A stretch of 64,000 nt of DNA. It comes from an uncultured Rivularia sp. (GTDB lineage: Bacteria; Cyanobacteriota; Cyanobacteriia; Cyanobacteriales; Nostocaceae). The position numbers and the translations under genes were made by a program. The number at the start of each line of letters is the position of its first letter. Position 1 is the first letter of the stretch. This document shows, in pieces, positions 20,929-61,752 of this stretch. The stretch is from NCBI GenBank assembly GCA_963665115.1, contig OY762007.1, forward strand, positions 3,328,001 through 3,392,000, in the 5' to 3' direction. The notes under the pieces were generated by a model, which saw only the letters and a list, made by a program, of their open reading frames with translations, did no database searches and was not told where the DNA came from.

Positions 20929-21112
20929 GTGATTTTATTTCTCCGTGTGATTGCGTGAATGGTAGGATATTGCCTACCAGATGAATCTAAAAATAATTAC
21001 AGTGTAAAACTTAGTTTCCGGTATAGATTGCCCGAGTTGCGATGTTTTCGGCAAGGCTAATTTTACAAATATCTTCTCCAAACGACGATTACCTCACAAT
21101 CGGTGGTTGATA

Positions 21113-22471
21113 ATGTCTGACAAGATAGAAAATTTATGGTGTCAAGTATTGGAACGCTTACAGTTAGAACTTTCGCGTCCCACTTTTGAAACTTGGATTA
21201 AAACAGCGATCGCCGAAAAACTAGAAAATAACTGTTTGGTAATTCGCACTCCCAATCCCTTTGCTCGCAATTGGTTACAAAAGTATTACATAAAAACAAT
21301 AGCGTCGGTAGTCCAAGATATTCTTGGTCATCCGGTAGGCATTTATTTTACAGTTACGAACGGCGATAATGTTGTTAACATCAACGACAATGAAGTAGGG
21401 ATTCAAACTCCCCAGATGGATATTCCGAAAAATATCGACATAAACGCACAGAAAAAATCGATTTTAAATCTAAAATATGTATTTTCCCGTTTTGTAGTTG
21501 GTGCAAACAATCGCTTGGCTCATGCTGCGTCTCTAGCAGTAGCGGAATCTCCCGGCAAGGAATTTAACCCTTTATTTTTATATGGCGGTGTGGGATTGGG
21601 GAAAACCCATCTAATGCAGGCTATAGGTAATTATCGCTTAGAAATTTTCCCTTCGGCAAAAATATTTTACGTTTCTACCGAACAGTTCACAAATGATGTA
21701 ATTAGCGCTATTCGTAATGACAGCAGACAAAGCCTTCGAGAACATTACAGGGCTGCTGATGTACTTTTAGTAGATGATATACAGTTTATTGAAGGCAAAG
21801 AATCTACTCAAGAAGAGTTTTTCCACACTTTCAACACTTTATATCAAGCAGGTAAACAAGTAGTTATCGCATCAGATCGCCCTCCGAATCAAATACCTCG
21901 CTTGCAAGAAAGGTTGTCTTCGCGCTTCTCAATGGGATTAATCGCCGATATCCAAGCACCAGATTTAGAAACCAGAATGGCTATTTTGCAAAAAAAAGCC
22001 GAATATGAAAATCTTAATTTACCTAAAGATGTCATAGAATACATTGCTTCTAACTACACTTCTAATATTAGAGAACTAGAGGGGGCATTAATTCGAGCGA
22101 TGGCGTATATTTCCATCTGGGGCTTACCCATGACTGTGGAAAATATCAGTTCAGTTTTAGAACCACAAGTTGAGAAGGTGGAAGCAACTCCAGTAGCGAT
22201 TTTAAGCATAGTTGCCGATACATTCAATCTTTCAATTGAAGACTTGAAAAGCAATTCGCGACGGCGAGAAATTAGCTGGGCAAGACAAATCGGAATGTAT
22301 TTGATGCGGCAATACACGGATTTAAGTTTGCCTAGAATCGGTGAAGAATTTGGTGGCAAAGATCACACTACGGTTATTTACAGTTGTGAAAAAATTACTC
22401 AACTCAAAGAAACCGATATTAACTTGGGACAAACCCTGCGTCAACTTAGCGATCGCATCGGCATGAGTTAA
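21113..22471 (+). CDS. dnaA: chromosomal replication initiator protein
   Basis: [47 protein letters not shown]. Confidence 0.99.
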
Positions 22472-22539
22472 CGACAGCAGCCCTAAATAAAAATGAATCA
22501 GATCGAAAGGCAACTCAAAAAAAAGCATTTCAACAACCA

Positions 22540-22900
22540 GTTTGCCTAAAAAACTAAGTTTCTTAATTATCAATAATGGTTCAAAAGTAATATAGATGTT
22601 AAGTATTGTATAAAAACTAGTTAACAAGAAGCAATATTGTGGAAAAAATCCAATTAATTGTGGAAAACTTTTAGCAAACCTGTGGAAAAACCTGTAGATC
22701 TCAAATAACCTGTGGAAAAACTCGCTGTTTTTCCACAGGTTTTTCCACAATTAGTCGTTTATACAACCTTCTTTGAGAAAGGATATGGTCAGTTTTCCAC
22801 AATTTTTCCAAATATGGCGATAAAAACAGCGATAATGTTTTTATCGCGGCAAATGTACGATTTAGAACTTAACGCGGCGAATTTCAATAAATAGTCTTTT
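22540..22900. promoter_or_regulatory. replication origin oriC (DnaA-box cluster)
   Basis: TGTGGAAAA at 22638, 22659, 22681, 22711 and TTTTCCACA at 22729, 22741, 22793, between dnaA and dnaN, AT-rich flanks. Confidence 0.93.
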
Positions 22901-23216
22901 TTTTAATGCTGGAGGATAAAAATACGGCAAAATATAATTTAAAGCTTCTAATTCTTTAAAAAAATCAGTTCATTTTTCTAAATTAAAAATGTTTTTACAA
23001 TAAAATTTTAATTGCGATGTATTAAGCTTTGACGCAAAATAACCGATTTATAGCAGCGATAGAGGCGGCAAAAAAGAATATTCTGATTAAATGATTGTTT
23101 AACAATCCTGGCGGAAAGTCCCTAAATAAAGCTTGCGGAGCTTGAGGATGAAAGCTAGAGCAGTATCTTGTTGTTTGATATATTTTTTGAGAAGATCGAG
23201 AGCATCCCCATAAATT

Positions 23217-24389
23217 ATGAAACTAGTTTGCAGCCAAAGCGATTTAAACACTCATCTTTCACTTACTTTCCGTGCTGTTCCTTCGCGCCCAACTCATCCC
23301 ATACTTGCCAACGTGCTTCTACAAGCAGATGCTGCAAATAGTAAAGTGAGTTTAACCGCTTTTGATTTGAGCTTGGGAATTCGCACCAGTTTCAATGCCG
23401 AAGTTCTAGAAGGAGGAACAATAACTCTTCCTGCTAAGCTACTTAATGATATAGTTTCTCGTTTACCGGAAGGAGAAATTACCCTTGATGACGAATTAGC
23501 AGATAAAGAAGATCGTCCTGTAGGAGAAGGTTTAACCGTTACCCTTACCCCAAAAAGCGGACGCTACGAAGTGCGGGCAATGGGTGCAGAAGAATTTCCC
23601 GAGCTACCTGTAACAGAAAACGATAAAGCAATTCATCTTCCTGCGAGTGCATTAATTGAAGGCTTGGGTGGTTCTTTATTTGCCACCAGTGCAGATGAAA
23701 GCAAGCAAGTGCTGACGGGAGTACATTTAACAGTTAAACAAGATAGTTTGGAATTTGCGGCCACTGACGGACATCGTTTAGCAGTAGTAGAAACTATAAA
23801 TGAAAATCTAAATGATGATGAGGAACAGCCAGATAATGTGCAGGTAACGCTACCAAACAAAGCTTTACGAGAATTAGAAAGGATGTTAGCTCATAGTTCA
23901 AAAGAAGATGAGCCTGTAGCAATGTATTTCGATAGTGGGCAAGTCGTTTTTGAATGGCAAAATCAGCGCTTAACCAGCAGAACTTTAGAAGGGCAATATC
24001 CAGCTTACCGCCAGCTTATACCATCGAGCTTTGAACGAGAATTAATCTTAGATAGAAAACAATTGATCGGCGCTTTAGAAAGAATTGCAGTATTAGCCGA
24101 TCAAAAAAACAATATAGCCAAAGTTAGCATCGATAGCGAATCTCAAGAAATCACTTTGTCAGTAGAAACTCAAGAAATTGGTAGTGGAAGGGAATCCATG
24201 CCAGCACAAATAAAAGGAGATGATATTGATATCGCTTTCAACATTAAATACCTGATGGAAGGTTTAAAAGCATTACCATCAGCAGAAATTCAAATGCAGT
24301 TAAACAACAATTTAGCCCCCGTGATCTTTTCCCCCGTCGGAGGAATTAAAATGACTTATTTAGCAATGCCAGTACAGTTGAGAAGTTAG
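23217..24389 (+). CDS. dnaN: DNA polymerase III beta clamp
   Basis: RPTHPILANVLL, AATDGHRL, LEGQYP, YLAMPVQ. Confidence 0.99.
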   Translation: MKLVCSQSDLNTHLSLTFRAVPSRPTHPILANVLLQADAANSKVSLTAFDLSLGIRTSFNAEVLEGGTITLPAKLLNDIVSRLPEGEITLDDELADKEDRPVGEGLTVTLTPKSGRYEVRAMGAEEFPELPVTENDKAIHLPASALIEGLGGSLFATSADESKQVLTGVHLTVKQDSLEFAATDGHRLAVVETINENLNDDEEQPDNVQVTLPNKALRELERMLAHSSKEDEPVAMYFDSGQVVFEWQNQRLTSRTLEGQYPAYRQLIPSSFERELILDRKQLIGALERIAVLADQKNNIAKVSIDSESQEITLSVETQEIGSGRESMPAQIKGDDIDIAFNIKYLMEGLKALPSAEIQMQLNNNLAPVIFSPVGGIKMTYLAMPVQLRS

Positions 24390-34521: not shown

Positions 34522-36685
34522 CTATTTCTTCCCAGATTTATTTAATTGTTTTCTCCACTTACCTCTAACCAAACGGATTTCGTCAAAGCTATAACTCTCA
34601 CCCAAATATTCTTTAATAGGTGTTAAAGCTGTATCTCCTAATGCATCAAGCACTTGAATAATTTTTTTCTGCTTTTCAACTGTGACTAATAAATTCAAAT
34701 CTACAGGTTTATCTTTTTCAATTAAATCGGAAAGATGACGAGTAACTGTAGTGGAACGAAGATTGCGCTGTTGAGCAATTTCTTTGATACTCAATCCTTC
34801 TTTATGCAACTCAAAGGTTTGCAATTCTGTATATGAAACATCTCCACTAGAAGAATTAGATTTTTGTTTTTGCGAATCTTTTTCTTCTAAATAAGCTTTG
34901 ATTACTTTAATAAATTTATCGCCATATTGAGTAAGTTTGTGGCTACCAACTCCTGCGAGTTTGCTGAATTCATCTTTGGTTTTCGGCTTCATCTGCGTCA
35001 TCAGTTTTAAAGTTGAATCACCGAAAATTACGTAAGGTGGAACGGATTGAGCATCGGCAAGCTGTTTGCGAAGTTCGCGCAATTTTTGAAATAGTATATC
35101 TGCTTGCTCTGCCTTGTCGCTTCGCTCTTTCCCGATCGATTTTTCTTTAGGAGGAACAACAATCGAAACGGAAACGCTGTTTTTTCATCACCTCCAAACT
35201 AAAGGAATTGAGTTTTAATACCGCATAACCATCGGTAGTTTGTTCGAGTAAACCTTGGTGCAACAAAGAACGTCCTAAGTTTCGCCATTCATCAAGGGTT
35301 CGATCTTTACCAATACCGTAAGTAGAAAGTTTATCGTGCCCTTTGCTAAGAATTTTTTGAGTTTTTCTTCCTTGCAAAACATCTATAACGTGTTTCATGC
35401 CAAATCTTTGCTTGCAACGTGCCACGCAAGACAAAAATTTCATTGCTTCAATCGTCCAGTCTTCAACGGGTTTGGGATTGCAGCAGTTATCGCAATTACC
35501 ACAATTACCTACAAATCTTTCTCCAAAATAACTTAATTGAATTGCGCGACGGCAGTCTGTACCTTCTGCATAATCGATCATTTGACGCAGTTGGTGCTTA
35601 GCAATCATTTGCTCTTGCTCGTCAGTTTTTTGATCGATCAGCCATTCGATAGTTTTGACATCGCTATAACTCAAAAACAGCAAACAACGCGACGATTCAC
35701 TATCTCTACCCGCTCTTCCCGACTCTTGATAATAACTTTCTAAATTTCGTGAAATGTCAAAGTGAACAACGAAACGCACATCGGGTTTATTAATCCCCAT
35801 CCCAAAAGCAATAGTTGCGACTATTATCCTGGCATCATCCCGAATAAACTTAGTTTGATTTTCGCTACGTTCTATATCGCTCAAACCAGCATGATAGGGT
35901 AAAGCAGAAATGTTGTCGTGTTGTAATTTAAAAGCTAATTCTTCAACCTTTTTGCGCGTCAAACAATAAATTATTCCCGAATCTTCATTTTCTCGGATAA
36001 GTTCCAAAAGTTCGGCATAGGAATTTTTCTTTTTGGGACGAACTTCGTAATAAAGGTTTTGACGATTAAAACTTGCGATATGAACGCTGGGTTGATTTAA
36101 TCCCAACTGTTTAATGATATCGGCACGAACTCTTTCTGTAGCGGTAGCGGTAAGCCCCCAAATAGGTACATTGGGGTAACGCTGTCGCAGCGATATCATT
36201 TGTCGATACTCCGGACGAAAATCATGTCCCCATTCAGAAACACAGTGCGCTTCATCGATCGCAAAAGCAGAAATACCTATTTGATGGTGTACTAAATCGA
36301 GTAAAGGTAAAAATCTTTCACTGAGTAAACGTTCTGGTGCAACATAAAGTAATTTTATTTTGCCAGCTAGAATCGCTTGCTCGCGCATTCTGACTTTATG
36401 AGGGCTAACACTGCTATTAAGGAAAGTTGCCGGAATTCCGTTTTTTCGCAATCCATCTACTTGATCTTGCATCAAGGCAATCAACGGGGAAACTACTATA
36501 GTTAATCCTTCTTTCATTAACGCAGGCAGTTGAAAACACAGCGACTTACCCCCACCAGTGGGCATAATAACTAGTAAATCGCGATTTTCTAATGCCTCAG
36601 TAATGATTTCCCGTTGCGGGAAACGAAAGCTGTCATAACCGAAGTGATGTTTGAGGGCGTTTTCTAGATGGGGATACACAGACAT
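34522..36685 (-). CDS. recQ: DNA helicase RecQ (helicase-RQC-HRDC-HTH), split by +1 frameshift near 35150-35190
   Basis: MPTGGGKS, IDEAHCVSEWGHDFRPEY, YQESGRAGRD; HRDC (VPPYVIFGD) in 34522-35082; joined ~720 aa. Confidence 0.95.
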
Positions 36686-45025: not shown

Positions 45026-45093
45026 CATAAAAAATTAATTTGATAATAAAAGCAAAGATCAAAGAAAAATTGACCTTTAACCTTTAACCTAAA

Positions 45094-46885
45094 TTACCGC
45101 TTCGCAAATCTCTTGGACATCTTCCGTAAACGAATTGATTCGGGTGTAATTTCCACCAATTCATCGGGGCCAATATATTCCAAAGCTCTTTCCAAACTCA
45201 TATCTGTAGGTGCTTGCAATTGAACCAATTCATCACCACTAGCAGCACGATGGTTTGTCAGCTGCTTGGTTTTACAAACGTTCAATTCCAAATCTTGAGG
45301 ACGATTATTTTCTCCAATAACCATGCCTTTATAAACTTTGGTGCCGGGAGTAATAAAGTAAGAACCTCTATCCTCAGCGTTTTTCAAAGCATAGAAAGTA
45401 GCAACACCTTCTTCAAAAGATATTAGTACGCCGTTGCGACGAGCAGAAATATCGCCCAAAATCGGACGGTAATCGAGGAAACTGTGGTTCATGATGCCGT
45501 CACCGCGAGTGATACGCATAAATTCACCACGGAAACCAATCAAACCACGAGCAGGAATGATGAATTCTAATTGAGAACGTCCGGTACCACCCATTTGCAT
45601 ATCTTGCATTTCACCTTTGCGCTGTCCGAGTCGTTCGATACAGCCACCAACGGCTTCTTCGGAAACGTCTAAAGCCAAGAGTTCGTAAGGTTCGCAAGGC
45701 TGCCCGTTGACTTCGCGGTAAATTACCTGTGGCTGGGATACCTGAAACTCATAACCTTCGCGGCGCATGGTTTCAATTAAAATACCCAAGTGAAGTTCAC
45801 CACGTCCGGAAACGCTAAAGCGATCGGGTGAATCGGTTTCTTCAACGCGCAAAGCTACATTAGTTTGCAACTCACGCATCAAACGATCTCTTATCTGCCG
45901 AGAAGTCACAAAATCCCCTTCCTGACCGCAAAATGGCGAATCGTTCACGGAGAAAGTCATTTGTAAAGTAGGTTCGTCCACTTTAATCAGTGGCAACGCA
46001 CGGGGTTCGTTGGGACAGGTAATGGTTTCTCCGATATTCGCATCAGCAAAACCTGCTACAGCAACAAGATTACCAGCGGATGATTTTTCTAATTCCACCC
46101 GTGCTAAACCTTCAAAACCAAGTAGCTTACTAATTTTGGATTTGACAACTTTACCGTCTTCTTTAACCAAAGCCGCTTGCTGTCCGGCGTTGATGGTACC
46201 GTTGTGAATTCTACCAATTACAATTCTTCCCAAGTACTCGGAATAATCCAGAGTTGTCACCTGTAATTGTAAAGGCTTTTCTGGGTCGCCAACTGGTGGG
46301 GGAACGTGACGTAAAATTCCCTCAAATAAAGGTTTCATATCACTGGATTCATCTTCGAGTTCTTTTTTAGCGAAACCTGCTAAACCAGAAGCGAACAAAT
46401 AAGGGAAATCGCATTGGTCATCATCTGCTCCTAATTCCAAGAACAAATCCAATACTTTATCAACTGCGACGTGGGGATCTGCTCGGGGACGGTCAATTTT
46501 GTTAACTACAACAATCGGACGTAATCCTTTTTCCAAAGCTTTCTTCAACACAAAGCGTGTTTGAGGCATGGGACCCTTCATTTGCATCCACGATCAGGAC
46601 GCAACCGTCCACCATACCCAATACCCGTTCAACTTCTCCACCGAAGTCAGCATGTCCGGGGGTATCAACAATATTAATTAAAGTTTCTTTGTAGCGAACG
46701 GCAGTATTTTTAGAAAGAATCGTAATTCCTCTTTCTCTTTCCAAATCGTTTGAATCCATAACGCAATCCGGAACGTCTTCCCCTTCACGGAAAATGCCAG
46801 ATTGTTTGAGCAGGGAATCAACGAGGGTTGTTTTGCCGTGGTCTACGTGAGCGATAATAGCGACGTTACGGATTGGGAGCGTCAT
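45094..46885 (-). CDS. typA: translational GTPase TypA/BipA, split by +1 frameshift near 46570-46576
   Basis: [26 protein letters not shown], then [20 protein letters not shown]; joined ~596 aa. Confidence 0.97.
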
Positions 46886-47031: not shown

Positions 47032-47074
47032 ATTGGGCATTGGCAATTGGGCATTGGGCATTGGGCATTGGGCA
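47032..47074. repeat. STRR-type heptamer repeat (ATTGGGC)
   Basis: Reverse complement of the CCCAATG family. Confidence 0.85.
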
Positions 47075-47208
47075 TGGTACAAAGTTAGGAGTTAAGACGG
47101 GAGTAGTAAGTAGCAAGTAGAGAGTAGCGAGTAGCGAGTTATAAATTATTTTCTCCTTATCTTCCTATCCCCCATCCCTTCTCCCATTACCTATTACCAA
47201 CCTAAAAA

Positions 47209-47872: not shown

Positions 47873-48370
47873 TTAATTAATAGATACAAAATTTATTAAT
47901 TCATTAGCGATACTTCTCCACCACCAGATATATTCATTTTCGGAAGTAGTCGCAGTATTAGTGACTAAATTTACTGCTCTTAAACCAGGACAAGAATTAA
48001 ATTCTATTTCCACAATCTTTCTATCAGATTTTGCACTTAAAGTATATTGTCCATCAGTTAAAAAAACATGGTGTTCGTAATTCTCTGGTTTTTGAATAAG
48101 TTCTTCAAGGTAGGTATAATAATCTATTAGGAATTCAGCATCGCTTTCAACATACAAGAACATTCCCCCACCATCAAAATACTTAGCCAAACCTCCATAT
48201 AAGTAGGTAGGCTAGAATAAACCAAACTATGTAAAGGAATGTAAAATCCTCAAAGTGCTTGTGATGATCCACACCTTCGGTGAATGCTTCGTTTCACTCC
48301 GTTCCACTCGCAATGACATAGTTATAAATTTTCCCACCCACCTACTTAGTGATATATATTCATATCCCAT
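47873..48370 (-). pseudogene. hypothetical protein interrupted by a MITE at codon 8
   Basis: Removing the element and one TA copy gives MGYEYISLYGGLAKYFDGGGMF..., in frame with ORF 47873-48190. Confidence 0.7.
48200..48348. mobile_element. TA-flanked MITE
   Basis: TA-AGTAGGTAGG ... CCCACCTACT-TA inverted ends. Confidence 0.8.
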
Positions 48371-51069: not shown

Positions 51070-51117
51070 GAGAGGGGGTAGAGGGGGAGAGGGGGTAGAG
51101 GGGGTAGAGGGGGTAGG
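51070..51117. repeat. 9-mer tandem repeat (GAGGGGGTA)
   Basis: Directly visible, about 5 units. Confidence 0.8.
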
Positions 51118-51412
51118 AAAATTAATTTTTAACTCTTTTAATCCAAATGTAATTGACAGTTTTCTTAATACATAATGGTGCGTTACGGCATTATCAAAGG
51201 AATAATCTTTCAATTGAATCACCTAGTACCGTAACACAACGGCAATATTGCGGGAAGAGAATCTACACCCTCCGGGTTCAACAGTTGCACTCTGCGAGAA
51301 AGCCTCCGGCTTACATGGGGGAAACCCCCAAGACCGCAATTTGCCTCCCCTACAAACTCACTACTTTCTACTTGCTACTTACTACTCATAATTCCTAACT
51401 CCTAACTTAATC

Positions 51413-54972: not shown

Positions 54973-56277
54973 ATGAGCAATACAAAATTTTGGCGAAATG
55001 CTTACCAGTTATTTAAACCAGAGGAACCTCTGGTAACGGCTGAAGACCTGAGAAATTTTTACGTACAAAGAGATAACAGTCCCTTGGATAAGCTGGTCAG
55101 TTTGCTAGAAATGGAGGATGATCCAGCAAAATTTTTATTGGCTGGTCATAGAGGTGGTGGAAAAACTACTGAGTTGCGACGGTTGCAACAAAAAGTAGCT
55201 GATTTTTACACTGTTATTTGGATTGATACGCAAAGTGCTTTAGACAGATACAATATTGGCTATGCGGAAGTGATAGTTTTAATTGGTTTAGAAATTGCAC
55301 GTCAAGCCATTCAATCTAATTGGTTATCTAATAGGAAAAATGAATTATTAAACGCTCTGCAAGATAGTCTTAAAGCTGTAGTTTATCAAGATAAAGATAG
55401 TGAAACTGATGGTTTGCAATTTCCAGAGTTTCTGACCAAGTTAGGATTAGTTCTTAAGCGTGGTTTAACTAGAGAGGTAACTAAAACTCTTAATGTTCGC
55501 CCTTTATTGAGCGAAATTATTGTTAGAGTTAATGATATTATCGAAGCTGCGGAAAAGGAAAGAGAGCAAAAATTAATGATAGTTGTTGATGGTTTGGATA
55601 GACATGACCAAGTAACTGCTTTGGAGATGTTTTCTAGTCCATTGTTAGTAGAATTAAACTCTCATATTATCTATTCAATTCCTATTTCTTTGCGATATTC
55701 TCCAAGTTTTCGTCAGCCAATGGAAAGTTTTCAAAAATGCTTAGATTTGAATAATCCTCCAGTGTTTGAATCTGACGACAATTTATGTCCGACTAATAAT
55801 CCCAATCAATATGGTCGAGAAATTTTAATTAAAGTAATAAATGCGCGTCTTGTTAAGTTGGGTGATAGTTATAAAGGTTTATTTAATCCCGATGCTTTGG
55901 AATTAATTTGTGAAAAAAGCGGTGGTGTGATGCGAGATTTAGTTAGGCTTGCACGTACTACCTGTGAAATTGGATTGCGAAATAAACTTTCGTTTATAGA
56001 TTTAAAAGCTGCACGAGAAGCAGTGCAAGAAGTACGTCGAGAGTATAATTTAAGTGACTACCACTATCCGGAACTTGATTCTATACACAAAAGTGGGAAG
56101 TTAACTACTAACACTCATAAATTACCTAACAAAGGTGAATTTATAATTGCTGACGAACTTTTACAGAATAAACTAGTTTTAGGTTATTACAACTCAAAAC
56201 AGGAGTCTTGGTTTGATATTAATCCTATTTTGATGGAAGATTTACAGCGTTGGCAAGCTACAACTAATATTTCATAA
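54973..56277 (+). CDS. P-loop ATPase (AAA+/STAND-like) of unknown function
   Basis: Walker A GHRGGGKTTE, Walker B IVVDGLDR, SGGVMRDLVRL, C-terminal WFDINP; ATG at 54973 preferred. Confidence 0.85.
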   Translation: MSNTKFWRNAYQLFKPEEPLVTAEDLRNFYVQRDNSPLDKLVSLLEMEDDPAKFLLAGHRGGGKTTELRRLQQKVADFYTVIWIDTQSALDRYNIGYAEVIVLIGLEIARQAIQSNWLSNRKNELLNALQDSLKAVVYQDKDSETDGLQFPEFLTKLGLVLKRGLTREVTKTLNVRPLLSEIIVRVNDIIEAAEKEREQKLMIVVDGLDRHDQVTALEMFSSPLLVELNSHIIYSIPISLRYSPSFRQPMESFQKCLDLNNPPVFESDDNLCPTNNPNQYGREILIKVINARLVKLGDSYKGLFNPDALELICEKSGGVMRDLVRLARTTCEIGLRNKLSFIDLKAAREAVQEVRREYNLSDYHYPELDSIHKSGKLTTNTHKLPNKGEFIIADELLQNKLVLGYYNSKQESWFDINPILMEDLQRWQATTNIS

Positions 56278-56330
56278 AAGTTTTTCATCCTCATTTTTAT
56301 CTATCAATATTAACTTTATCTGGTTGGTAT

Positions 56331-59300
56331 ATGCTTAATCAAGACACTAATTATTATTTAAGTGAAGTTGATAAGAAGGAATTAGATAAGTTAGTTGTTT
56401 TATTAGAACTTTCCAGTGGAACGACAATTATTTTTGGCATTACACCAGAAATTAGTCCCCAACATATAGTAGTCAAAAGTCTGAAGGAATCTTTAGAAAC
56501 AACTGAAGAAAGTTTTGAGTCTTATAACTTTTTTTATAGCGAAGATTCTTTTCATAATTTTCTTTATAGCTTGGATGATAATAAACAGCAGAATACCCAA
56601 GCTGAGCGCAAATTGGTGATGGCATTTGGAATTGACCAATTACCTACACCGCGCTTGGTTAAAGAAATGAAACAACTTAATTTAGGTAGAGAAGAGCTAT
56701 TTGGAAGAAATTTAGTATTAATTTTATGGCTCAATAAAGAACGGTTTTTAGATGAATTTCGTCAGCGTGCGCCAGATTTTTGGGATTGGCGAGAAAAGGT
56801 AGTAAAATTTGAAACACGCAATCCCTTACTTTATCCCTATTTAGAGTGGTTAATTGCTGAGAATTCTTATCTCAAAATGAGTGGCGTAATGCAGGTAAAT
56901 CGCCAAGTTGATATTTTTCTTGACCAAGTTTATGTATCCCTACAAGCACAATGGCGACAACATATTACCGAAACTTCTGAGGCTAATACAACAAAACCTA
57001 ATGCGGCGAGTGTATCGCAATCTCGAAGTGTTAAATTTGACGAGATGGATGTTGGTCAAGATGATTTGGATGAAGCCTACGATTACGAACCACTTCCTGA
57101 AGACTCAATAACTGTTTCTAGCACTGAAACCATTATCCGAAAAATCGCATTATCTCAGGCGGTACGAGAAAATCCTTATAGTGTGATTTTAGGCGCTCCA
57201 GGTGCAGGGAAGACTACTCTTCTACGTTATTTAGCGTTACATTTTGCAAGAACAAAAAGAGATAATAAGGAAACAGTAATTGTTGGCGAAGACAAGGAAG
57301 AATTAAGTAAAACTTTGTTACCAGTTTTCTTTCGGATTGCTGACTTTGCAGAGCAACTCGAACAACAGCCAAATTTAACTTTATTTGAATATCTACGTCA
57401 GTTTTACCGTCAGTGGGAAGCTCATTTTCAAACAGAAGAAGAAATGGGAACTCCGAAAGAGGTAGCAGAATTTCTTCTATTGAGGATGCGTCAAGGACAG
57501 TGCTTGATGTTGCTAGATGGTTTAGATGAGGTATTTGACCAAGAAAGTCGTAAACAAATTGTAAAACGTATTAATCAGTTTGTTGATAAGTTTCCTAACA
57601 ACAAATTTGTAATTACCAGTCGTATTGCTGGCTACCGCGATGTGCAATTAAGCGATAGGTTTGCAGAATTTACCATTGAAGACATGGATAGCGAACAGGT
57701 AGAACGATTCCTATCTCGCTGGTGTTATACAGTTGAAAAAGCGCAACAGCCAGATGCTAGTGAAGAGCAATGGCATAAGAGAGGAGATGAGCAAATACAA
57801 GACATTTTACAGTCAGTTGAAGACAATGAGGGCGTAAAGCGGTTAACAACAAACCCCCTACTGTTAACTATTTTGGCACTCATTCACCGAAATGGCGATC
57901 GCCTTCCCAATCGTCGAGTTAAACTCTATGAATTAGCAGTGCAAACTTTGACGGAAGATTGGCAACTTAGTAAGAAATTACCAGATGCACCAAAAGTAGT
58001 GTTAAAGGAAACAGAAGTAGTAGAACTTTTAGCACCTTTAGCATATTGGATGCATGAAGAAAAACCTTCTGGTGTAGTTAGTCAGCAAGAAGTTGAAGAA
58101 AATTTAGCACAAAAACTAGCGGAAACTGAATGATGATGAGCCAGAGTCAGAATCCGTGCTTCAAGCGGTAGGGGAGTTTTTGCGTAAAGTACGGGAAACC
58201 ACAGGTTTATTTGTGGAAAAAACACCAGGGTTTTACGGGTTTATGCATCTGACGTTTGAAGAATATTTTGCTGCTCGTTATATTGCGGATAACGACCTAA
58301 GTGATATTCTACAACTAATCCAGAACCATCTCCACGAACCGCGCTGGAATGAACCTATTTTATTAGCTTTAGGGTATTACGGAATTCATTTTCCTAGACA
58401 AGTTAAAAAATTAGTAGAAAGACTGTTCAAGAATTTAGAAGATTATCAACCGACTTTACAACATGGTGAGATACAAATTAAAAATTCTTCATCTGATGAT
58501 GCAATTATTTTTTACTTCAAAGCGGACGATGAATCAGAAAACAACTCCCAAGAAGTAGAATTCAAATTGAAGGATTTGTTGTTTGCTGGACAGGTAATTG
58601 CAGAAGTTGAAGTTAATAGTAATTTTCGGAAAAAGCTGATTCGTAAGTTAGTTATTACCTATCTTGGTATAGATACTGATGACTTTGGAGATGATACGAC
58701 TAAGCATTTATTAAGATTACTGCGTAAAATAGAACAGTTTTATAAAAAAAATGAAATCATAGATTTATTAAAAGAATTTGCTAATGAATCAACCCTGTCT
58801 GAAGAAATTCGTATTGTAGCAAAAACAGCCATTCTTTATATTGCTTGTAGTGATTCAGTAGAATTAGTTAATTTTGCGACAGAATTTGTTAATGAATTAG
58901 AGCCATTTTTATTTTTATATACTATTGGTTTTGTGCAAAATCTTGGTCAAGATATGACATCTGTTCTCGAAGCTAGTAGAAAGTATAACTTAGCTGAAGA
59001 ACGATGTCAAACAGCATTAACTTTTCTTACAGGAATATTTTACATTCGTAAAGATAAATATGATTTAGCTATATCTATTTTAGAAGATATTAATGAGCAA
59101 TATAATAGTAGTTTAGGAGCATTTATTGATTGGGCATTGGCATTTTGTTATCAAGAAAAAAAAGAATATGAAAAAGCTAATAAGTATTACAATAAGGCAA
59201 AAACATCTAATGACTTTATAAATAGCGCTTATTTCTGGCTTTCTTGGGGTAAATGTCAATCAGATTACAAAAAATATGAAGAATCATTAAACTATTATCA

Positions 59301-61752
59301 AAAAACATTATCTATAATAAAAAAATTAGGCGTTCCAAAATACGAAGCAAGTATTTTAAGCATTGTTGGTAGAGTATATCAATGTTGGGGTAAATACCAA
59401 CAAGCGATTAACTATCACCAACAAAGTAAAGATATTTATCAACAGTTAGATCGAGATAAAGATATTGCTAACCAGTGGACTTTGCTAGGTAACTGCTATC
59501 GTTCATGGGGTAAATACGACCAAGCTGTTGAATCTCAAAATAAAGATTTAGAAATTCATCAGCAATTGAATGACCAAGTTAATATTGCTAAAGCATACTA
59601 TCAACTAGGAATGATTTATCAAGACTGGGGTAAATATGAGCAAGCTGTTGATTACTATCAACAAAGCAAAGAACTTAATCAAAAATCAGGTCGTAATAAA
59701 TATGTTATTAACCACTGGTCTCGTCTGGGTGAATGCTATCATTCATGGGGTAAATATGAGCAAGCTGTTGAATGTAAAAATCAATGCTTAACAATTAGTC
59801 AACAGGTAGACGACCAAGCCGGTATTGCATTCGCATACTATGAATTAGGAACGATTTATCAAGATTGGAATAAATACGAACAAGCTGTTGAATATAAAAA
59901 TAAAGAATTAGAAATTTATCAGCGGTTGGATAACCAAGCCGATATTGCATTCGCATACTATCAAATAGGAGAGATTTATACTTATTGGGATAAATACGAA
60001 CAAGCTGTTGATTACTACCGACAAAGTAAAGATATTTATCAACAATTAGGTCTGAATAAAAAAGTTGCTGACCAGTGGAACAATCTTGCTGATTGCTATC
60101 ACTTATCAGGTCAATACGAAAAAGCTGTTGAATGTAAAAATCAATGCTTAAAAATTCGTCAGCAGTTAAATGACCAAATTAATATTGCTGACGCTTATCA
60201 TCAGCTAGGAAGGATTTATACTGATTGGAGTAAATACGAGCAAGCTGTTGATTACTACCAACAAAGTAAAGATATTTATCAACAATTAGGTCGAGATAAA
60301 AGTGTTGCTAGCCAGTGTAAAAATATAGCATACTGCTATCGGTTATGGGGTAAATACAAACAAGCTATTGAATATCAAAATCAATGCTTAGCAATTCGTC
60401 AACAATTGGATGAACAAGCAAATATTGCATTAGCATACGTTCACTTAGGATGGATTTATCAAGATTGGGGCAAATATGAACAAGCTACTAATTACTATCA
60501 AAAAAGTAAAGACATTTATCAACAATTAGAACGAAATAAAGATATTGCTAATCAATGGTATAATTTAGCTGATTGCTATCGCTTATGGAGTAAATACGAA
60601 CAAGCAATCGAATATCAAAGTAAATGCTTAAGAATTCGTCAGCAGATAAACGACCAAGCTGATATTGCATTAACTTACTATCAATTAGGAAGGATTTACA
60701 CTTACTGGGGTAAATACGAACAAGCTGTTAATTACTATCAACAAAGTAAAGAAATTTATAAACAGTTAGGTAGGGATAAAGATATTGTTAGACAGTGGAA
60801 TAGCTTAGCTTATTGCTATCGGTTATGGGATAAATACGAACAAGCTATTGAATATCAAAATCAAGCCTTAACAATTTGTCAGCAGTTGGATAAGCAAGCT
60901 GATATTGCACTCGCATATTTTGCATTAGGATGGATTTATCAAAGTTGGTGTAAATACCAACAAGCTATTGATTATTACCAACAAAGTAAAGATATTTATC
61001 AACAATTAGGTCGAGATAAAGATGTTGCTAGCCAAAGGTCTTTGCTAGGTAATTGCTATCGAAGTTCAAAAGACTATAAAAAAGCAATTGAGTGTTGTCA
61101 ACAAAGCCTTGCTTTGTACCAACAGTTAGGTCAGGATGAAAGCGTAGGTAGACAGTATCAAAAACTTGCTTACTCTCAAAGCCTATTAGCAAAACATACT
61201 TCAAATCAAATAGAAAGTTCTGAATTACTAACACAAGCAGAAGAAAACATAAATCAAGCCATAAAAATAAATACTACAGGCGAATATATAAAAAATCTTG
61301 CTTACGACTACATTGTTTTCAGTTTGCTCTGCTCAGAACGTTTACGCTGGATACCTAACGACTCATCAAAACAAGAAAAAATTCCCTTATTTGAAGAGTA
61401 TTACCATAAGGGTTTTACCCATTTTGATGAATTAGGACAAGCAATAAAAAAATCAGGACAAGCTCTTAATATTGCTCGTGCTTATTTAGAAGTGGAAGCT
61501 CTAGAAAATCTTGATAAAAGCGAAGAAATCGCCAAAGAATGTTTGCAAGTCTCTCAAGACTATAACCGCCGAAAATTAGAAGCCGCAGCACGCAAACTAT
61601 TAGGTGAAATTTACCAGAAACGCACTCAACAAAATCAGCCAGACGCAGAGTCAATTGCTACCCAGTTTTTATCAGAAAGTCTACAAATTTATCAAGATTT
61701 GGATTTACAAGAAAAAGCAGCCGAAGTAGAGCAGATTCTGTATCCTAACTAA
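56331..61752 (+). CDS. NACHT NTPase-TPR protein with N-terminal degenerate P-loop-like domain, split by +1 frameshift near 58123-58125
   Basis: GAPGAGKTT, LLDGLDE, ITSR, NPLLL in 56331-58133; F-M-HLTFEEYFAA and TPRs in 58156-61752; joined ~1806 aa. Confidence 0.88.
59344..61143 (+). repeat. intragenic 120-bp (40-aa) TPR tandem array with 240-bp superperiod
   Basis: CAAGCTGTTG/CAAGCTATTG-type sequence recurs every 120 bp from 59401 to 61081; two alternating unit types. Confidence 0.92.

Follow-up and report, generated by a model that had tools for sequence, protein, structure and literature searches.

Pairs of an active and an inactive NTPase are already known from the nSTAND2 operon (PMC8195603) and from BrxC–BrxB (PMC12839542). 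The nSTAND2 operon is described as two genes for one active and one eroded STAND protein, the latter fused to TPRs and variable domains (PMC8195603). In BREX, an active ORC/Cdc6-like AAA+ ATPase, BrxC, is accompanied by BrxB, a compact inactive AAA+ protein without Walker motifs or lid, which is described as completing the BrxC ATP site with an arginine and as bridging to another protein (PMC13326643, PMC12839542); B:Z raises the ATPase activity 2–6 fold (PMC13326643). The bNACHT/Avs proteins share with our locus a NACHT domain with the signature DGLDE and, at the C-terminus, a long sensor made of TPRs (10.1101/2022.07.19.500537; PMC13581612). MoxR-vWA ternary systems of the iSTAND and VMAP types include inactive STAND domains and are enriched in cyanobacteria, and the C-terminus of their vWA component is the effector slot (Kaur 2020, PMC7159879). 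Finally, the MNS clade Npun2340/2341, named in PMC8195603, comprises cyanobacterial STAND-like NTPases. Many bacterial NLR-like proteins, by contrast with those carrying a TIR, SIR2 or similar domain, have no recognisable effector, and the locus described here encodes such a protein next to a second ATPase. Its features within the window, i.e., the whole stretch of 64,000 nucleotides that was analyzed, are as follows:

54973..56277, plus strand: stand-alone ATPase, an ORF of 434 aa with its motifs located in the translation
56331..56825, plus strand: putative dead-NTPase-like N-terminal domain (N-domain), aa 1–165 of the large protein, with no Walker A, an eroded Walker B (VMAFGID), an invariant R120, and APDFxxW
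57180..58133, plus strand: NACHT module with Walker A GAPGAGKT and Walker B DGLDE, running up to a frame break
58123-58125, plus strand: frameshifting extra A within a homopolymer, likely introduced during sequencing or assembly
58156..59220, plus strand: remaining NACHT part (FMHLTFEEY) and helical connector, in one ORF with the N-domain in 44 of 47 relatives
59221..61752, plus strand: TPR array of 16 motif-anchored 40-aa repeats, followed by a conserved C-terminal cap

The initial annotation had placed an ATPase with intact Walker A and B motifs 53 bp upstream of the co-oriented large gene starting at 56331, which is borne out by the ORF and by the motifs GHRGGGKT (Walker A, aa 58–65) and IVVDGLD (Walker B, aa 203–209). 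The motifs that it quoted for the large protein are likewise all in place (TIIFGITPE at 32–40, VMAFGID at 96–102, LNLGREE at 116–122, and APDFWDW at 147–153). An AF2 model of the ATPase (pLDDT 88.7) comprises a P-loop core into which helices are inserted between strands 2 and 3, an SGGxxR lid, and a predicted winged-helix-like tail, the names of lid and tail being our own reading of the model. Forty-nine diverse family members retain Walker A, D.LD, R292, and SGGxxR, and none of their conserved arginines lies between strands 4 and 5. Over 76 members, weak matches to nSTAND5, AAA_16, KAP, and ATPase_2 were scattered. The match to KAP (PF07693) reached 21 bits (cut-off 20) with 155 of 293 model positions covered. 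In KAP NTPases, strand 2 is followed by an insert that often contains membrane helices; the insert of the ATPase is soluble and helical in the model. PDB sequence searches with the ATPase and N-domain profiles gave no informative match, and the matches in the ESM Atlas were unnamed cyanobacterial clusters, without any named one. By our own reading of the ORFs, an RND efflux operon and an oxidoreductase–regulator pair lie in the window flanks. Genes read by us as dnaA-like and dnaN-like are located at 21107-24389, and the window therefore probably covers the replication-origin region. Short intergenic stretches at about 45070-45090, 47050-47077, 48260-48320, 51070-51120, and 51380-51410 showed very high contig depth and are short repeats dispersed genome-wide.

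For the large gene, the initially given length of about 1806 aa was confirmed, but not the single ORF: in the window it consists of two ORFs in different frames (56331-58133, 600 aa; 58156-61752, 1198 aa), and the length of 1806 aa applies without the extra A at 58123-58125. This base is absent from contigs of runs X2 and X3, which represent the same organism as the window, and from the six best relatives; contigs of run X4 do not reach the site. The N-domain and the region beyond the break share one ORF in all relatives except three that stop at contig edges, and the named relative P0133 is a protein of 1806 aa. Moreover, 5 of 78 conserved genes probed in the genome are split, four of them clearly by homopolymer over-calls and the fifth in a noisier alignment, and homopolymer indels are apparently numerous in the assembly. 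Because X2 and X3 lack the extra A and similar homopolymer errors split housekeeping genes, the 1806-aa protein is most likely intact, with the frame break resulting from a source-read error; a subculture with numerous indels is a less likely cause. A sensor gene truly broken in this strain or subculture would account for run X1, whose contigs (depth about 203) carry the extra base exactly as in the window. We consider this quite improbable, as X1, unlike X2 and X3, also carries an extra base at 46574 that splits a typA-like gene (45094-46885, minus strand), and may be the assembly's own source, its library type being off record. A recQ-like helicase gene (34522-36685, minus strand; the name is our own reading) apparently also forms two ORFs (512 and 186 aa), probably through the same kind of error.

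The intact NACHT module and the long TPR array of the initial annotation were both recovered by Pfam: NACHT (PF05729) matched aa 284-464 above its cut-off (E 1.4e-12), with GAPGAGKT at aa 288-295, and many TPR families matched the C-terminal part. The two NACHT Walker motifs are retained in 45 and 43 of 47 relatives, some of which are cut by contig ends. The TPR repeats are of two alternating types, forming an 80-aa unit, and are 70–85% alike in DNA within a type. Among 26 complete relatives, repeat number ranges from 3 to 27 and protein length from 1380 to 2433 aa. Variation peaks at first-helix positions 3, 6/7, 10, and 14, with the second repeat class partly mixed; such spacing would fit a single face of the helix, as in a groove that binds ligands. 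The ATPase (dN/dS 0.08–0.14 against six relatives), the N-domain (0.13–0.38), and NACHT (0.07–0.12) are all under purifying selection. PADLOC and NCBIfam searches with the pair yielded no full-length match, only partial P-loop or TPR matches.

No family was found for aa 1–165 in Pfam, PADLOC, or NCBIfam, and none of 65 N-domain members scored above a Pfam family cut-off, iSTAND models included, in agreement with the earlier statement that the N-terminus has no recognisable effector. That statement was accompanied by the claim of a P-loop-like strand order lacking Walker A, for which the AlphaFold model of the N-domain (pLDDT 81.5) and a weak profile match speak. The model predicts five strands (32-37, 62-68, 93-99, 128-134, and 156-159), each preceded by a helix, and stops after the fifth without a lid; a comparison of the two AlphaFold models gave the same element order as in the ATPase core. 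With deeper alignments, hhalign placed the hGLE strand of the N-domain on Walker B of the ATPase and the next strand on strand 4, in register (E 0.011; score 23.4 versus at most 20.0 in 30 block shuffles). An earlier comparison with shallow alignments was not significant (E 0.045). Across 143 diverse members below 60% identity, a Walker A pattern occurs in none, strand 3 carries hGL[ED], R120 is invariant (143/143), and D149 is conserved in 98%. Based on model topology and the weak profile match, we infer a P-loop fold, and the N-domain is likely a dead NTPase, i.e., a P-loop AAA+/STAND core without Walker motifs. Having lost Walker A and B and with no lid in the model, it would belong with inactive STAND/AAA+ domains of the BrxB/iSTAND-like type.

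We analyzed the linkage of both genes, which the initial annotation had presented as a two-gene system, by a neighborhood survey, and found it to extend to other genomes. Genome loci picked by the ATPase had an N-domain gene downstream in 47 of 54 cases; of the other seven, three lie at a contig edge, two have truncated ATPases, and two (L004 and L044) lack a partner. Conversely, of 30 loci selected via the N-domain, the window itself among them, 29 had the ATPase upstream. The metagenome set comprised the 80 best loci out of 470, for which the ATPase was the sole selection criterion (22–94% identity). Downstream DNA was available for 71 of these loci, and the N-domain was present in 66 (62 at E below 1e-5). 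As a control, the deeper N-domain profile matched 0 of 351 other neighbors, and against this rate the linkage in 47/54 and 66/71 loci rules out a chance neighborhood of two genes. The window genome has five ATPase copies, each followed by an N-domain. It also has a sixth, stand-alone N-domain gene (G000 C1:1314426-1314959, minus strand; 178-aa frame) without adjacent ATPase, for which a decoy or regulatory role is conceivable. Among database members, several of 159–205 aa look stand-alone as well or represent contig fragments. Across 72 paired loci with 69 different N-domain sequences, the two families sort into the same three classes when clustered at 40% identity (ATPases) and 30% identity (N-domains), a co-sorting that can arise from linkage alone and is no proof of contact. 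Among 11 longer ATPase relatives, a weak search revealed no natural ATPase–N-domain fusion.

These data also bear on a different role of the N-domain, namely that of a receptor for nucleic acids or invaders rather than mainly a dock for the ATPase. Such a role was proposed by Kaur et al. for inactive STAND domains and iSTAND (PMC8195603) and also for BrxB-like domains (PMC12839542). Those domains are described as fast-evolving, however, whereas R120 and APDFxxW form a tightly kept, invariant patch in the N-domain, whose classes follow those of the ATPase, and we regard a receptor function as highly unlikely.

The N-domain/ATPase module has no Pfam model; the N-domain profile matched 80 of 301 cyanobacterial genomes searched, including 34 of 35 in the host's family. 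Positive genomes of the host's order have 1–9 copies of the pair, and it was not found in most small-genome families searched. The N-domain family comprises 2,949 clusters at 50% identity, metagenome loci with the pair span 35–67% GC, and viral contigs gave one 29-residue match only. Twenty loci of one clade share the same housekeeping neighbors. Given its presence in nearly all host-family genomes and these fixed neighbors, the module is unlike a mobile defense gene. Defense genes are sparse around it: at 1e-10, PADLOC matched 17 of 148 neighbor representatives (drawn from 174 clusters) and, in metagenomes, 15 of 148 neighbors (drawn from 219 clusters), counts that come with no background rate, and many of the matches involve generic enzyme folds. 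About five cyanobacterial loci were read as truly defense-like (L008, L017, L019, L034, and L051). Together with the purifying selection, the near-universal occurrence, fixed synteny, and few defense neighbors would suit a non-immune signaling or scaffold module, e.g., in development or the sensing of stress, of large-genome, mostly filamentous cyanobacteria and other bacteria. The NACHT-type ATPase, however, also occurs in many neighborhoods (138 of 174 neighbor clusters are single-locus) and on plasmids, the TPR arrays vary like an accordion, and in one case a putative conflict system includes the ATPase as a fusion. Taken together, we judge a non-immune role to be unlikely.

Partner architectures were compared next to the fusions of the ATPase. 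In the window genome, the four paralogous partners consist of the N-domain and TPRs, or of the N-domain, TPRs, an nSTAND1-like NTPase, and WD40. In 62 of the 150 best representatives, the tails were TPR, nSTAND1-WD40, or NACHT-TPR, with single cases of GUN4, a WecG glycosyltransferase, and an N-terminal kinase; 48 distant metagenome partners had TPR in 45 and STAND plus STAS in one (top five families per protein). Judging from these domain contents, the conserved unit is the ATPase plus the predicted dead domain, with NACHT outside the core. As tails elsewhere are mostly without NACHT, the NACHT form with three NTPase domains appears as one derived clade of a two-part module whose usual partner is the dead domain plus TPR. 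The three-NTPase-domain layout proposed initially is thus one variant and not the general one. Individual architectures include two tandem N-domains and, in one protein, a kinase ahead of N-domain and NACHT (P0121, P0140, P0251), glyoxalase-like matches interleaved in the TPR arrays of the L123 and L124 partners, and an N-domain–STAND–STAS order in L116.

The ATPase itself was also found as a fusion. Plasmid p057_J of Nostoc sp. C057 encodes a protein with SAV_2336-type annotation (vWA-type) that ends in an ATPase of 70% identity; it belongs to a VMAP-MoxR-vWA operon (L170:6693-11866), in which VMAP (Pfam VMAP-M1 and VMAP-C) and MoxR genes precede the fusion. By its position, the ATPase occupies the predicted effector slot of this putative conflict system. 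A HEAT/FGE gene pair and a restriction endonuclease follow downstream. The 25 kb around the fusion contain no N-domain gene, showing that the ATPase need not have a partner gene beside it. Three more long ATPase relatives resemble the vWA fusion by eye, and others (P0387, P0388-P0392, P0394, P0397) are fused to NNH2-NACHT, STAND-TPR, or (truncated) nSTAND1-WD40.

Our preferred reading, to which we give slightly less than even chances, is that the N-domain docks the ATPase and that the ATPase serves as the output of a predicted immune-type sensor. NLRs respond to ligand binding with oligomerization of their NACHT domain. By analogy, a ligand bound by the variable TPR array would switch NACHT on, NACHT would oligomerize, and the oligomer would cluster and trigger the docked ATPases as the likely output. 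The dead domain would dock the ATPase as a pseudo-subunit and might supply an arginine in trans, with R120 as the candidate, as BrxB does for BrxC. As the simplest guess, the ATPase would assemble in an ATP-driven manner, and the infected cell of a filament would be arrested or die. This reading is supported by the gene linkage, the co-sorting of both families, the shared element order of the models with the in-register profile match, the BrxB–BrxC precedent, the effector-slot position of the plasmid ATPase, the TPR variation, and the invariance of R120 in combination with an ATPase family in which no conserved arginine lies between strands 4 and 5. The canonical place of an arginine finger is before strand 5; R120 lies before strand 4, which speaks against this reading. 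The same applies to the sparse defense neighbors, the fixed synteny of 20 loci, and the near-constant presence in the host's family, to the plasmid vWA-ATPase without N-domain gene in its vicinity, and to the hhalign probability of just 3.9% together with a nearly equal, out-of-register match of the N-domain to nSTAND1 (score 21.7).

Docking would equally be expected if the ATPase were devoted to controlling the sensor, be it as a chaperone for its folding or as a regulator for its resetting or restraint, with the output coming from the sensor or an unlinked protein. The ATPase is constant and the tails are variable, some of them with enzymes or ligand domains (GUN4, WecG glycosyltransferase, kinase, STAS, glyoxalase), and the window genome has an N-domain gene without ATPase, all of which would fit a regulator. 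Most tails are TPR only, however, with no enzyme to regulate (TPR in 45 of 48 distant partners, top five families per protein), and the C-terminal fusions to vWA, NACHT, and STAND-TPR proteins put the ATPase in the usual output position; a purely regulatory ATPase therefore seems rather unlikely to us. Returning to the ATPase as output, a broader version is doubtful: the dead AAA+ domain may be a universal adaptor through which various receptors (TPR, WD40-STAND, or NACHT-TPR) are interchangeably equipped with the cognate ATPase, whose active site it would complete in trans, in which case the locus would represent NLR signaling via a second ATPase. If true, this would be a bacterial counterpart of CARD or Death-domain recruitment.

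A full-text literature search found no paper on the family; Leipe 2004 and Burroughs and Aravind 2020, both outside the comparison, may list it, and the vWA-ATPase fusion or the family is possibly included in the Cell version or Table S1 of Kibby et al. or in the Figure 1 source data of Kaur 2020, likewise outside the comparison. The accessions of two named orthologues are absent from the PMC13581612 and PMC8195603 supplements, which is weak evidence as these tables hold representatives. The initial annotation knew of no characterized system with this layout: at the family level no match was found, while the theme as such has precedents in nSTAND2 and BrxC-BrxB. A match of the pair to an already described system, one of its refuting conditions, was not observed in the comparisons to both.

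The pair was ruled out as BREX, since the window ORFs lack the combination of BrxC with PglX and PglZ, as well as BrxA, and no BREX model matched; PglX, PglZ, and BrxA were also missing from the PADLOC matches of neighbors. BrxC is 1200–1300 aa long and the ATPase only 434 aa, the pair has no sequence match to BREX models or PDB chains, and here the sensors, of TPR or STAND type, carry the dead domain as a fusion. An assignment to nSTAND2 was rejected as well: neither the ATPase nor the N-domain matches PF20702, and an HEPN or GT4 effector was found neither by Pfam on the pair nor among the partner families shown (top five per protein). In contrast, nSTAND2 is described as keeping a wHTH and carrying HEPN or GT4 effectors, and its operons in the examined rows of the supplement are from Gammaproteobacteria (PMC8195603). 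Compared to MoxR-vWA systems, the locus has no MoxR or vWA gene, and the N-domain does not match the Pfam iSTAND models, but an ATPase of the family forms a fusion with the vWA component in a VMAP system (L170). The likeness to the MNS clade extends to weak ATPase_2 matches in 21 of 76 ATPases. With bNACHT proteins, the large protein shares Walker A, a D[GAS]hDE Walker B, a Pfam NACHT match above cut-off, and a C-terminal repeat sensor; a recognisable N-terminal effector (TIR, SIR2, nuclease, protease, or EAD) is missing. It further differs from bNACHT/Avs in its dedicated upstream ATPase and in lacking a full-length PADLOC or NCBIfam match. Should the dead domain recruit and activate a separate ATPase, this would explain one large class of effector-less NLRs and add a new NLR output. 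Overall, the pair is a real, apparently unnamed variant of the active-plus-eroded STAND theme.
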